Source of the DNA: a virus
Lineage: Duplodnaviria > Caudoviricetes
IMG/VR virus record: IMGVR_UViG_3300043009_000039
Coordinates: 21,822 to 85,821 of that record
Direction: 5' to 3' (one strand)
Length of the DNA stretch: 64,000 nucleotides
The notes beneath the pieces are model-generated. The model was not told where the DNA came from, did no database searches, and saw only the letters and a list, made by a program, of their open reading frames with translations. This document shows, in pieces, positions 20,883-56,203 of this stretch (position 1 is the stretch's first letter; each line of letters begins with the position of its first letter). A program made the position numbers and the translations under genes.

Positions 20883-21508
20883 ACTTTACTTTTTTAGTTT
20901 TGGCTTTATATATAATATATTACTTGTTATATTATATATTATTACTTGCTTCTCTTATCTCATCAGCTAACTGCGGAAACCTGAGACCCCGAGCGAGGAG
21001 GCGCAAAATTTCCCTTAGCGCTGTTAAACGCTTCGAGAAATCGCGTAAAAAAGTTCCTGCGTATAACCGTCGCCCGTCGCTTTTCAACGCCCATAGCCGT
21101 TGGTACAAATGCTATGACCAAGAGTTCCGCAGTGTCCCCTGCGCCGTCTTTTTGTGCTCTTGCACCCATTGCTGCTCGTGAAACAATGAGCATCTCCTCA
21201 CATAGCGCTGTTGACGGTTCCTTTTAGCGCAGATGTCCTTTCAAGCCAAACGTACACAGCCGCCTCCAGCCTCACCGATAAACTTGAAAGTAAGTATTGG
21301 CGGTTATCAGACTTTATTCCCGTTCTCAGTTCGCTCGATAGGGGCAATAAAAAAATCCATACCGTCAACGATTTTAAGGCACCTGACTTGCAAAACAAGT
21401 CAACGAACTGGTACTAAAAAAGACGATATGGATATATAAAATAAAATCCTTGTGTTACGTATTATAACAGTTCGTTTTGTGCCTTTTTATATCGTTTCCA
21501 ATACGTAA

Positions 21509-21588: not shown

Positions 21589-22532
21589 CTAATTAAACAG
21601 CTCGTTTCGCTCGTCGGGTAAAGTTTTGTTACATCTTGCGAGCACTTTTCTAACAGCTTCACGGAAAGTCACGCCGTTGTTTGTGTAGTTCATGACCATG
21701 TTGTAGAGCTTGGGGTAGGTTTTATAGAGCAGGTCGAACTTGTCCTCGAACTGAATCGAGAATCCGCATCCTACGCATCCCGTTCTGTTTGCACCCTGAT
21801 GGTAGACTTCGGCTATTTCGAGGTTGTAACGTTCGACATATTCGAGGATGTCTTTCTCCGTCCAAACAGAGAGAGGATTCGACATGCTCCGTTCGCCGTA
21901 GTAGTTACAGCCCTGATGTCTGAGCCACGTACCCGCACGCATCTGACTCTCGCTTGCCATCATCCCGAGGATTGGCGAGCGACCCGTCTGATGTTCGAAT
22001 TTCTTGAAAGGGTCTTTTTTGAGTTTGTCACAGCATCGGTTGGTGCAGTCGTAAGGTTCGTCTATCAGGTACCGCCATTTCAGCGGCAGGATGTAGCAGC
22101 CTTTGCGGGCCATAAACTTTTGAGAGGTGGCGGTGTTCGGGTCGTGACGTATTCGTCGAATCTTGTCCGATGTTTCCTTGCTTACGAGAGGGAATCCGTA
22201 TTCTTCCCAAACTTGCTTCGGGGTCAGTTTCGGGTAGATGGTCAGGATGTTATACCCCCCCTATGTTTAAGTTTGTTAACAAGGCTGACCACCGACGGGT
22301 TCTCATTTCGGGTGTTGCAGAACACGGCGAGAATGTCGGGGTAGATTCGTCGGCAGAGGTCTAAGAGTACCGTACTGTCGCGACCGCCCGAGAAGCCGAC
22401 ATAGACTTTATCCAATCCTCCCATTCGGGTAACGAACGAGGATATGACGTCGAGGCTGTGTTGAATCTTCTGCTCGAGCGACCATTGCTGTCTTTCTTCG
22501 AGGTCTTTGTAATCCAATTTCATAGGTTCCAT
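21589..22532 (-). CDS. PAPS-reductase-family (PP-loop, Fe-S) protein, split by a -1 frame change at a G7 tract
   Basis: N part FSGGRDSTVLL...NTRNE; C part CCDKLKK, GMMASES, RTGCVGC. The linking YGFPLVSK segment is in the -1 frame directly after G7 (22255-22261). Confidence 0.85.
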
Positions 22533-37975: not shown

Positions 37976-39227
37976 CGTTTGTACTCTTTATTCTCGACAA
38001 TAGGATATTAGCTTATATGTTTCCGTTTGTTTCGGTTGGTATGTTTTCGGAAAATGTTTTTTGCAAGCTGTTTTTTTCGACGCCTTGAGGCCCTTTGCTT
38101 ACTTTCTCTTTGCCGTCTAATTACCCCCCTTTCAACGTCTATTTTCACGCAATTACGCCCCTTTATTGTCTACCTACTTACTACCTACTTTTGCCCCTTT
38201 GCGCCCCCTTTTCGGCTTAATAACGCCTACAATACGACCGCTTCAGCCGCGTTTTACGCCCTTTTCAATGCAAGGGGGGGGGCGGCAAAGCCAGGACAAA
38301 CAGGGGGGGCTACCTTCTCTCAAATTTTTTTCTGTTTTTTTTATTTTCAGGACTATCTATATGCTTCTTTCTTTACTGCTTACCTTTCTTGCAGATTTTT
38401 TTATTTTATTTTTTCATTACAGCTAATCCCCCTTCTTTCTATGCTAATTCCCCTTCTTTTCTTCTGAATTTCTGCGACATGATTTCTCGGATGCTTTGTT
38501 CTCGCTTGGGATTTTCTTGCAATGATACGCCTTGTTCAAATTTCTGCGACATTGCATCGGCGACAAGGGACTGCTGCGATTTTGGAACGAAAAAAGCGAT
38601 TGTACTTAGGATAGATAAAGCTATTAAGCAAGATTGAATAAATTTCAATAAAATTAACGCCAATCTATGATAGGGACGACGCGGCTGCGACATTGGGAGG
38701 CTGATACTATGGCGCAGAGCGAAGCAACGAGAGCAAGGACGCTGAAAAACGATTCAGGGCGCGATTTCAGACGTTTGGCTGAACAACCGTCCGACTTAGA
38801 CGCGATAAGCGATTCTGCGCGATTTTAGGGGGCTTTTCAGGGCATATTCGCGTCTGCGTCCGACTCTGCCGTCTGAATCGCTTGACGGGAACGAAAAAGA
38901 GGGCGCAAGGACGACCCGCCGAAGGAGGAGGAGCGACTGCCCGAAGAGCGAACGAATTGACGCAGGAGCGGAGGCGACGAGGCGGGGAGGGAACATAACG
39001 GGCGCGAAGCGGGCAAGCAAAAGAGGCGGAGCTTTTCTTTTTAGATGCGAAGCATCTTTTTCTTTATATAATATATATATTAATACAGAAGTATATGATT
39101 AAGTATAGAGAACTCTATATAGGAGAGTTTAATTCTTTCTTTTTTAGGGGGATGTAGGGGGACATTTTTCTTTCTTATTAGAGAACCTGTCAGCAAGCGT
39201 GTTTTTTTGTCGCTGTTTTCCGAGTGG

Positions 39228-53847: not shown

Positions 53848-54182
53848 AGGAAATAAAGGAATATACCTCCTCACAGCTTAGACGAGCCTATGAGGATATA
53901 TGCGAGGAATACGCCAAGCGAATGTGTGAAAGATTCGGCATCGACTATGATACCTGCTTTTGGGTATGCGATGAGGTTGGCACCGTTTTCTGCGCGGACA
54001 ATATAGATTTCTCCCTCGGCATGGACGACATCATATTCATTGTGGAAAAACGCCTTTCATGGGACGACTTTTGGGAATATTGGTCGTACAACATGGAGGA
54101 AACTCTGAAATATAAATTAAACAGTTTTCCAATTAACATGAAGTCATGGTTTAACGGATATAGACCCGAAAATTACTCATGA
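53838..54182 (+). CDS. Hypothetical protein (114 aa; start MELEEI)
   Basis: ORF ending in an ATGA overlap with the methyltransferase gene. Confidence 0.7.
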   Translation: MELEEIKEYTSSQLRRAYEDICEEYAKRMCERFGIDYDTCFWVCDEVGTVFCADNIDFSLGMDDIIFIVEKRLSWDDFWEYWSYNMEETLKYKLNSFPINMKSWFNGYRPENYS

Positions 54183-54991
54183 AAAAGATTAACGTTGTAA
54201 CATTATTCTCGGGATATGACGCGATGTGCTTGGCTTTGGAAAGGCTTAAAGCCGACTTTCCTTTGTGCTTCGACTACGAGCTTATCGCTTGGAGCGAGAT
54301 AGACAGATTCGCCATAGACGCCCACAACGCTCTTTTTCCTCAATGGGCGGACAGAAACTTGGGCGACGTAACCCAAGCTGATTACAGCACGATTAATGAG
54401 CCGATAGACCTTCTCATTTACAGTTCCTGCTGTCAGTCCGTATCTTTGGCGGGCAAGAGAGCGGGTATGAAGAAAGGTGACGACTCGGCGGCGTCTGCGT
54501 TGATATGGTACACGGAGCGTGCAATCGAAGCTCTGAAACCGAAGTATCTTCTGCTTGAAAACGTAAAGGGCATGATAACGAAGAAGAATAAGCCGGACTT
54601 CGATATGTGGTGCGAAACGCTTAAAAAGCACGGCTACGACAACTTCTATCAAGTCTTGAATGCAAAACAGTTCGGTGTGCCGCAGAATAGAGAGCGCGTG
54701 TTTATGGTCAGCATCAGGCGCGACGGAGCGACGCCCGAGAGTTATACGTTTCCCAAACCATTTCCGCTCGAAAGACGACTTCGCGATATTCTCGAAGATA
54801 GCGTTGACGAAAGCTATTATTTGAAGCAGGAGCAAGTCGACCGTATTGTAGCCCACTGCGACCGCAAAGTAGCGGAAGGATGCGGCTTTAAGACCAACTT
54901 CCAAGAGGGGGGGGGTATAAGTGGAGCAATAAAGACCAAGGAGGGGTCGAGGGAATACGACACCTACGTCAAAACGACCGAGCCGAAGTGA
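54179..54991 (+). CDS. C5-cytosine methyltransferase, N-terminal part (motifs I-VIII)
   Basis: LFSGYD, SEID, GDV, SSCCQ (PCQ variant), ENVKG, VPQNRERVF; G9 tract at 54907-54915. Confidence 0.9.
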   Translation: MKKINVVTLFSGYDAMCLALERLKADFPLCFDYELIAWSEIDRFAIDAHNALFPQWADRNLGDVTQADYSTINEPIDLLIYSSCCQSVSLAGKRAGMKKGDDSAASALIWYTERAIEALKPKYLLLENVKGMITKKNKPDFDMWCETLKKHGYDNFYQVLNAKQFGVPQNRERVFMVSIRRDGATPESYTFPKPFPLERRLRDILEDSVDESYYLKQEQVDRIVAHCDRKVAEGCGFKTNFQEGGGISGAIKTKEGSREYDTYVKTTEPK

Positions 54992-55107
54992 TTGTTGCAG
55001 GGAAAACAAGCACGAGCCAAGACGCAGTGATAGTGTATCCCGACGGAATATCGCCTTGCCACTGTTGCGGTCACGGCAACCAACCAAAAATTTTAACCGA
55101 TGAGTGA
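54988..55107 (+). CDS. 39-aa stand-alone methyltransferase variable-region (TRD-like) module (not in the ORF track)
   Basis: VIVAGKTSTSQDAVIVYPDGISPCHCCGHGNQPKILTDE; GTGA overlap with the upstream gene; resembles modules in 55100..56203. Confidence 0.6.
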   Translation: MIVAGKTSTSQDAVIVYPDGISPCHCCGHGNQPKILTDE

Positions 55108-56203
55108 GAACGACATCCGTCCGAGAGTGATTGCAAGTGTAAGGCCCGACAAAAATTGGGGAGGGCTTCCGAAGCAGGTTGACAGAATCTACGACCTGAA
55201 CGGAGTCGCACCATCCTTACTTTGCAACACGGGCGGGAACAGAGAACCAAAGATTATGACACAAGAACCCATCAACGTTACAACGGAGGGCGCGGCTTAT
55301 ACGTTAACGGCTCGTTATTCAGCCATGTGCGCAACGAATGTCGTAGGCGGAGGCCACTATCCTATGACGGCGGTCTGTGAGCGGGACGAAGAACTGCCGC
55401 CCCTGCCGCAGAACCTCGATACCAAACGAGTTAAAGGCGAGCCGAGGATAATTCAGAAATACGGCGACCGAGGAACAAGCAACTACTCGGTTAAAGGTAT
55501 TTCCAATACGATACCCGCCAACCCAATGAGCGACCGCGGGCAACTCCTCGTCGAGCCGCAATCTATTAGCACCAAACAAGACAAGATGAAAGAAAATAAT
55601 ATTACAGTCACGACCTGCGCACAGCGCGGGCGCGAAACGGGGCAACGCCTCGAGGCGGGCGGTGAGGTGGCAAACGCACTGACCACCGTACAGAAGGATA
55701 GTATGGTCATCGAGTCCGCAACGGTAACAACGCAGGTTGACAGCAGCCACTTGTATTTTGTGAGCGAGCCGACGACCAGAGCCGCCGAGGAACTGCGGCA
55801 AATAGCGCAGGAGCACCGAAGCTGCAAGGTTGGCGTAAACATCATGAATGACGGTGCGCTTAGACCGTTCAACGCCGAATCAAGAGCGAAAGACAGCATC
55901 TCCGAATACTGCACGGATAGTAGTAGTAGTAGTACGGTGATAGCGGCAAGGGAGGGAAGGGTTTACGGCCCCGAAACCCGGTATCGAATCCGCAAGCTGA
56001 CCCCGAGAGAGTGTTTTAGGTTAATGGACGTCGACGACGAAGATATTGATAAAATACAAGCCGCGGGAATTTCCAAGACACAGCAATACAAGCTTGCGGG
56101 AAACAGCATCGTGGTCAGCTGTCTGTACCATATCTTCCGAACGATGTTCATCGACGACCAGCCGAAAGACGACCAACCTATACAACTGACATTGTTTGAC
56201 TGA
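55100..56203 (+). CDS. C5-cytosine methyltransferase, C-terminal part (multiple TRD-like modules + motifs IX-X)
   Basis: RKLTPRECFRLM...QQYKLAGNSIVV; several short modules upstream. Confidence 0.88.
   Translation: MSENDIRPRVIASVRPDKNWGGLPKQVDRIYDLNGVAPSLLCNTGGNREPKIMTQEPINVTTEGAAYTLTARYSAMCATNVVGGGHYPMTAVCERDEELPPLPQNLDTKRVKGEPRIIQKYGDRGTSNYSVKGISNTIPANPMSDRGQLLVEPQSISTKQDKMKENNITVTTCAQRGRETGQRLEAGGEVANALTTVQKDSMVIESATVTTQVDSSHLYFVSEPTTRAAEELRQIAQEHRSCKVGVNIMNDGALRPFNAESRAKDSISEYCTDSSSSSTVIAAREGRVYGPETRYRIRKLTPRECFRLMDVDDEDIDKIQAAGISKTQQYKLAGNSIVVSCLYHIFRTMFIDDQPKDDQPIQLTLFD

Follow-up and report, generated by a model that had tools for sequence, protein, structure and literature searches.

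A length-variable poly-G tract as a probable phase-variation switch in the PAPS-reductase-like gene of a tailed phage

We describe a run of seven G's (G7) within a PAPS-reductase-like gene of a tailed phage, which is probably a conserved, hypermutable contingency tract that switches the gene by phase variation, with the OFF allele present in the sequence analysed here. The locus unites the features by which contingency loci are recognized: a repeat within the reading frame, length polymorphism among near-identical genomes, the occurrence of both ON and OFF alleles, a gene under constraint, and a tract that is maintained. The sequence, hereafter the window, is a 64,000-nt stretch (bases 21822-85821) of an IMG/VR virus record, 85,821 bp long and rated complete by CheckV; feature coordinates given below are those of the window unless another locus is named. 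Its PHROG matches (a 1999-aa tape-measure protein, sliding clamp, primase/helicase, RecT, an SbcC-like protein, an Ant anti-repressor, and a radical-SAM protein) mark it as a tailed phage, siphovirus-like and with 47% GC. The close GTDB homologues of the gene are overwhelmingly from Bacteroidales (Bacteroides, Muribaculaceae, Prevotella, Rikenellaceae, Dysgonomonadaceae, and Tannerella), a distribution that suggests Bacteroidales as the host group. The whole 85.8-kb genome contains four G or C runs of at least 7 nt, two coding and two intergenic.

The PAPS-reductase-like gene, predicted to encode a PP-loop enzyme resembling BrxP, SspD, and DndC, occupies 21589..22532 on the minus strand and is split between two frames at the tract (22255..22261). 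An earlier note on this DNA, made from its letters and open reading frames, had described this split and the -1 shift needed at A-G7-TATAA to repair it, and both the frames and the sequence are as it stated. From the ATG at 22532, the 0 frame reads ...AAA CAT AGG GGG GGT ATA ACA TCC TGA, giving a 96-aa N-terminal ORF (22242..22532) with the PP-loop motif FSGGRDS; this is the putative OFF product, ending four codons past the tract at the stop at 22244-22242. The -1 frame has a TAG at 22263-22261 and then reads GGYNILTIYPKLTPKQVWEEYGFPLVSK... (GGG GGG TAT AAC...) for 223 codons (21589..22260), including the CC...CxxC cysteines, to the stop at 21589. Its first ATG, GTG, or TTG is the ATG at 22113, again as previously noted and in agreement with the ORF listing, which leaves 47 codons after the TAT without a start of their own. 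A tract of G8 would join the two parts (93 + 221) into a protein of 314 aa, the approximate length that had been proposed, and one that fits the homologue lengths of 310-320 aa. Both halves match Pfam PAPS_reduct (PF01507), the N part at profile positions 3-53 and the C part at 80-172, with scores of 32.2 and 32.9 bits, respectively (cut-off 22.5). In the ON allele, the tract codes for Arg-Gly-Gly, and the TATAA immediately 3' of it (22250..22254) for Tyr-Asn (TAT AAC); in the two other frames, the same TATAA is read as GTA TAA or as GGT ATA ACA TCC TGA, producing an immediate stop in both OFF frames. We infer that this off-frame-terminating arrangement has been selected.

Nucleotide searches gave no relatives of the window gene: megablast of the locus against 50,697 GenBank phage records gave no match, an exact 28-mer across the 3' flank of the tract was found in no other IMG/VR record or JGI metagenome contig. 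A single-protein scan of IMG/VR returned one relative, 47% identical and without the tract; further IMG/VR relatives came from a search with an alignment. Among 465 homologues, mostly single ORFs of 310-320 aa, the full-length members read ...FVRxxxxxGxNIQIIRPKxTPRQVW... across the junction, and several of ~220 aa start just past it, their contigs being split by a G run at the same codon site. The earlier note had named tract length in related genomes as a check, and this length ranges from G5 to G12 at the window's codon site; the outcome it had set against its own reading, that all homologues would be in frame and without a tract, is contradicted by the G runs of these relatives. The tract-bearing homologues at this site share 54-69% protein identity with each other and with the window protein, and a scripted frame check finds out-of-frame alleles in both directions. 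The tract is one G too long in C-G9-TATAAT (L005) and A-G12-TATAAT (L007), and one G short in the window as well as in A-G10-TATAAT (L006), C-G8-TAAAT (L252), and ATC-G10-TAATG (L253 and L254, two assemblies), while A-G8-TATAAC (L011) and TTA-G8-TAAAC (L113, a Prevotella MAG) are intact. Tyr-Asn follows the tract in seven of the ten tract-bearing lineages, the other 3' flanks being those of L113, L252, and L253/L254.

The closest view of length change comes from one lineage with identical flanks (L008-L010 and L255-L264), in which the tract is G7 in eight samples, G8 in two, G9 in two, and G10 in one. Within it, L008 and L009 have G8 and an intact 320-aa protein, and L010 has the same flanks with G10, at a coverage of 2.8, where long G runs in short-read assemblies can be miscounted; L255-L264, from ten samples and two projects, have identical C-part proteins with G7 in eight and G9 in two. 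A G5 allele is indicated by a 319-aa protein of the same 90% cluster that has QIRGYNVQ in place of QIRGGYNVQ. Of the listed members of the cluster, ~23 contigs carry intact alleles and ~46 carry C-part-only forms, some of which may be cut by contig ends. By these comparisons, the tract changes faster than any other position of the gene, and both states are common in nature. In some members of the tract-bearing lineage (P0248 and P0258, of the same 90% cluster as P0058), found on 25 contigs, the segment ...FVQSQIRGGYNVQ... has been swapped for the tract-less ...FVREMMSDGANIQ..., so that the switch can evidently be lost by recombination.

We propose that slipped-strand mispairing during phage DNA replication adds and removes G's, presumably at high and reversible rates within the population. 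Tract lengths of 3n+2 (G5, G8, or G11) would yield the full enzyme (314 aa at G8), whose surface loop would then have one, two, or three glycines; at all other lengths translation would end within a few codons of the tract, and the assembled window population, with G7 and one G short, would be OFF. In the AlphaFold (AF2) model of the intact homologue P0058 (pLDDT 94), the tract codons R90-G91-G92 lie in a surface loop between helix 79-90 and strand 95-98, and because of this position one, two, or three glycines are probably tolerated. The ON state would presumably lead to modification of the phage DNA by the enzyme, and stochastic ON/OFF switching could then serve as bet-hedging between two kinds of host, those with defences that the modification blocks and those with defences directed against it.

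Several observations suggest that selection maintains the tract. GGG makes up 16% of Gly codons in the genome and AGG 8% of Arg codons, and a pure G run at this site goes beyond what such codon usage and drift would give; the pure run also persists across lineages whose synonymous sites are saturated. In 160 family loci (80 from IMG/VR and 80 from GTDB), runs of G7-G10 occur at five or more Gly-Gly sites of the gene, all on the sense strand, and near-identical contigs differ in length (L029 G10 versus L030 G9; L055 G9 versus L080 G8; L073 G9 versus L084 G10). Counted over 90 distinct tract contexts, the sense strand outnumbers the antisense strand by 76 to 10, and the 3' flank is TA in 41% and CA in 22%. 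TATAA follows 9 of the 90 tracts, and six of these nine are the PAPS site itself in different lineages. As a side observation, Muribaculaceae prophages (L013-L015, L097-L100, L105, and L147) have a tract near position 395 in another gene, which lies upstream of the PAPS-reductase-like gene by ~800 nt; its context is always ...GTATCT-Gn-CAAAGTT, with G7, G8, G9, or G10 depending on the genome, including cultured isolates and the complete chromosome OX620685.

Three mechanisms had been offered for the frame break in the earlier note, namely programmed frameshifting, transcriptional slippage, and phase variation. The last of these gains from the G5-G12 polymorphism and from the near-identical intact and off alleles, while a fixed programmed -1 frameshift is rejected, as the register varies, many relatives are in frame, and a stimulatory structure is lacking. 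Programmed frameshift and slippage sites (dnaX, the phage tail chaperone G/GT, IS elements) likewise have a run of identical bases where two frames overlap, but they are constant in sequence and register from one relative to the next and as a rule come with a stimulator. The window allele resembles such -1 sites in needing a -1 correction at a run of identical bases, and differs from them in its variable tract length and register, in the frequency of in-frame alleles, and in having no stimulator: the folding energy of the next 90 nt is -14.2 kcal/mol, and shuffled controls average -15.3 (z 0.36). A looser form of recoding, in which the DNA stays at G7 and either the polymerase adds a G or the ribosome slips -1 on G GGG GGT, so setting a low level of expression, is in our judgement unlikely. 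Slippage is known to occur on runs of 7-12 identical bases, G GGG GGT in the 0 frame is formally an X XXY YYZ heptamer, and the same -1 correction is needed by both strains of the window lineage (G7 and G10) and by six of the eight out-of-frame lineages at this site; this excess of one-G-short alleles could mean that -1 slippage, by RNA polymerase or the ribosome, rescues the gene, or else that deletions are favoured. Yet L005 (G9) and L007 (G12) need the opposite correction, G8 alleles that are intact and have the same flanks are frequent, the tract varies in length where a programmed site would be constant, and the RNA after the tract has no structure beyond that of the controls. Slippage on G7-G12 may nonetheless provide leaky expression on top of the proposed DNA-level switching.

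A simpler reading, that the true tract is G8 and the gene intact, with one G lost in sequencing or assembly, we regard as very improbable, even though homopolymers are the commonest site of indel errors. One public run holds the window phage, and a 12.4-kb Logan contig from that run (word depth 12) crosses the tract unbranched with G7 and no difference from the window; it was made by a separate assembler, but probably from the same sample and possibly from reads shared with the IMG/VR record. A run of G7 is short enough for Illumina-type reads, however, and no other gene was seen to be broken at a homopolymer (16 A/T runs of 7-9 nt were left out of the individual check). Moreover, A-G7-TATAAC recurs in eight independent samples, from two projects, of the related lineage, and the lengths in other relatives vary by 2-5 bases rather than by one.

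The closest relative, L004, is a 1,134-bp contig from SRR5942304 with a 174-aa product, 95% identical to the window in nucleotides and with a tract of G10; it came from the protein search, and its first base is 3 nt ahead of the tract. Across the 221 post-tract codons, the window and L004 differ by 26 synonymous and 4 non-synonymous codon changes (dN 0.010, dS 0.215, dN/dS 0.045), and over the 47 start-less codons by 5 synonymous changes and none that are non-synonymous; the same changes read in the two other frames would be mostly non-synonymous. By this measure, the post-tract frame is under strong purifying selection, start-less stretch included. Since that stretch is constrained, the C part probably is, or until recently was, translated as a continuation of the N part, and the constraint on the whole post-tract frame argues that the gene is not a decaying pseudogene. 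That a frameshift mutation simply killed the gene, which is broken in both the window and its sole close relative, is scarcely credible given a dN/dS of 0.045 at a dS of 0.22, the finding of no further stop or indel in either half, and a break that falls within the very tract that many lineages conserve while varying its length.

As for the enzyme itself, a Foldseek search with the homologue model places CysH and APS reductases at the top, and the window protein keeps the CC...CxxC cysteines and the SGGxDS PP-loop (FSGGRDS in its N part). It does not score, though, as a true CysH or APS reductase of sulfate assimilation, falling far under the NCBIfam cut-offs for cysH (40 bits versus 165), APS_reductase (46 versus 235), and PAPS_reductase (23 versus 254). 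In the PADLOC defence library, the best match of an intact homologue is BrxP (5e-23), covering positions 204-345 of a 779-position profile, followed weakly by SspD and DndC. BrxP (of BREX type 4), SspD, and DndC are PAPS-reductase-fold components of DNA-modification systems. The window protein shares with them the SGGxDS PP-loop, the PAPS_reduct fold, and the CC...CxxC cysteine set; it differs in being a stand-alone phage protein of 314 aa, its gene having small phage genes as neighbours and no BREX, Ssp, or Dnd partner genes beside it. The proposal of the earlier note that the gene encodes a probable DNA-modifying enzyme is reasonable in light of these defence matches. In PHROGs, the family (phrog_424) is classed among the auxiliary metabolic genes, and it is usually labelled as one of sulfur metabolism; its probable phase variation, in company with that of methyltransferases, and its affinity to BrxP, SspD, and DndC together argue instead for a role in DNA modification.

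The second coding poly-G tract of the window, G9 followed by TATAA (54907..54915, plus strand), lies in the N-terminal ORF (54179..54991) of a C5-cytosine methyltransferase gene, directly past the catalytic N-domain (Pfam profile positions 2-230). This tract is in frame here (ON), because the 0 frame after it, GGGISGAIKTKEGSREYDTYVK, aligns with seven homologues; the same alignment rules out any need for a shift at this site. The 12-mer GGGGGGGTATAA, which the earlier note had found to be identical in the two genes, does occur in two places in the window, where chance would give 0.06, and its second copy (54909-54920) takes in the end of the G9 run, where there is no frame break. We rejected a shared functional signal, as the copies are in different registers (GGT-ATA-AGT in the methyltransferase, TAT-AAC in the PAPS-like gene) and TA follows 41% of the 90 tracts; the 12-mer is best taken as a common tract context that happens to recur.

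Many methyltransferase homologues end a few residues past GGG (...EGGYK or ...DGGGC, then a stop), and these are apparently OFF alleles at the same site; L198 and L199 instead have C9, read as PPP, where the window has G9, and also a C11 further on. G runs of at least 6 or C runs of at least 7 are present in 29 of the 80 IMG/VR methyltransferase loci, with up to six runs per 3.7 kb, mostly in the target-recognition part, which suggests phase-variable choice of recognition modules. Individual loci in the set L172-L251 (e.g. L183, L189, L196, and L205) hold up to six sense-strand runs of G7-G14, along with some of C8-C11. The window methyltransferase (54179-56203, plus strand) comes in three pieces. 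Piece 1 (ORF 54179..54991) has motifs I-VIII plus GGGISGAIKTKEGSREYDTYVK; piece 2 is a 39-aa ORF in the -1 frame, from the GTG at 54988 to 55107, that overlaps piece 1 by GTGA and resembles a target-recognition module (...GISPCHCCGHGNQPKIL); piece 3 (ORF 55100..56203, overlap ATGAGTGA) has further modules plus motifs IX-X. Since most homologues of piece 1 are also 240-275 aa, this is likely a naturally split enzyme. With G10 at the tract, piece 1 would read through into the 39-aa module. In L198 (190-2196), the methyltransferase N-domain is 668 aa, with a large insertion directly past the catalytic Pro-Cys motif; a related match, P0194, has Hint/intein Pfam domains, and the L198 insertion looks like an intein.

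Poly-G switching in phage genes is already known, and the window case is not a new mechanism. Campylobacter phages (Fletchervirus) are reported to have poly-G tracts in genes, and length changes of these tracts toggle the frame and leave mixed progeny, as shown experimentally (Sorensen et al. 2021, Cell Rep 35:109214, via PMC12823448). The window phage is like them in having poly-G runs within coding genes; however, the Campylobacter tracts are in receptor-binding genes of low-GC phages, whereas the window gene encodes an enzyme of the PAPS-reductase fold, in a phage of 47% GC, and the evidence for its switching is comparative. The closest functional analogy is with the contingency loci T2 agt and T4 rIIA (Gomez, Barrick and Waters, bioRxiv 10.1101/2025.10.21.683753), where reversible +/-1 frameshifts in a homopolymer of the agt glucosyltransferase gene trade TgvAB resistance against McrA/BC sensitivity. 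This is the same trade-off logic that we propose for the window gene, although the T-even loci are A tracts of ~9 nt with measured reversion rates, in contrast to a G tract in another enzyme family and host group, known from comparison of sequences. Among bacteria, Campylobacter jejuni cj0031 encodes a phase-variable Type IIG enzyme under poly-G control (PMC4889913). As in such phasevarions, stochastic ON/OFF switching would come from a simple-sequence repeat that lies within the coding part of a gene for DNA modification, but phasevarion genes are on the bacterial chromosome and regulate host expression or restriction, whereas the window gene is phage-borne.

To our knowledge, poly-G on/off switches are little documented in gut phages. 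A bolder reading, which we offer tentatively and hold to be possible but rather doubtful, is that gut Bacteroidales phages have a mutational "switchboard" over their DNA-modification genes, in which poly-G and poly-C tracts toggle the BrxP-like enzyme and determine, for the split, multi-module C5 methyltransferases, the target-recognition modules to be translated, each burst giving progeny with many differing epigenomes. Under this reading, the sense-strand tracts, often several per gene, would toggle independently; the BrxP-like enzyme would act in sulfur or adenylation chemistry; selection would favour the G(n)TA context because it ends the off-frames at once; and RNA slippage would make the switch leaky. 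If the switch of the window gene works as proposed, gut phage populations carry heterogeneity in DNA modification that is built in, heritable, and yet reversible, which would bear on host range, on escape from restriction and modification-dependent defences, and on the success of phage therapy or microbiome engineering. There is also a consequence for annotation: automatic pipelines split or drop such genes, which are then counted as pseudogenes or "frameshift errors," and recognizing conserved tracts would correct many virome annotations.

The two intergenic runs of the genome, G9 at 38274-38282 and G7 at 38303-38309 (plus strand), are 20 nt apart within an apparently non-coding region of ~1.8 kb, between a leftward and a rightward gene block, that has many short C-rich and TACCTACT-like repeats; one possibility is a phase-variable promoter, another an origin region. 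Directly downstream of the PAPS-like gene (21390-21480, minus strand), an AT-rich core of ~50 nt is conserved between the window and L004 (770-900). The inverted repeats around this core are wholly different in sequence, CGAACTG/CAGTTCG in the window and GAGCCGC/GCGGCTC in L004, yet keep their complementarity, and a small hairpin after the core co-varies too (GACTTG/CAAGTC versus GGCTTA/TAAGCC); possible readings of the element are a structured RNA and a terminator-promoter module.
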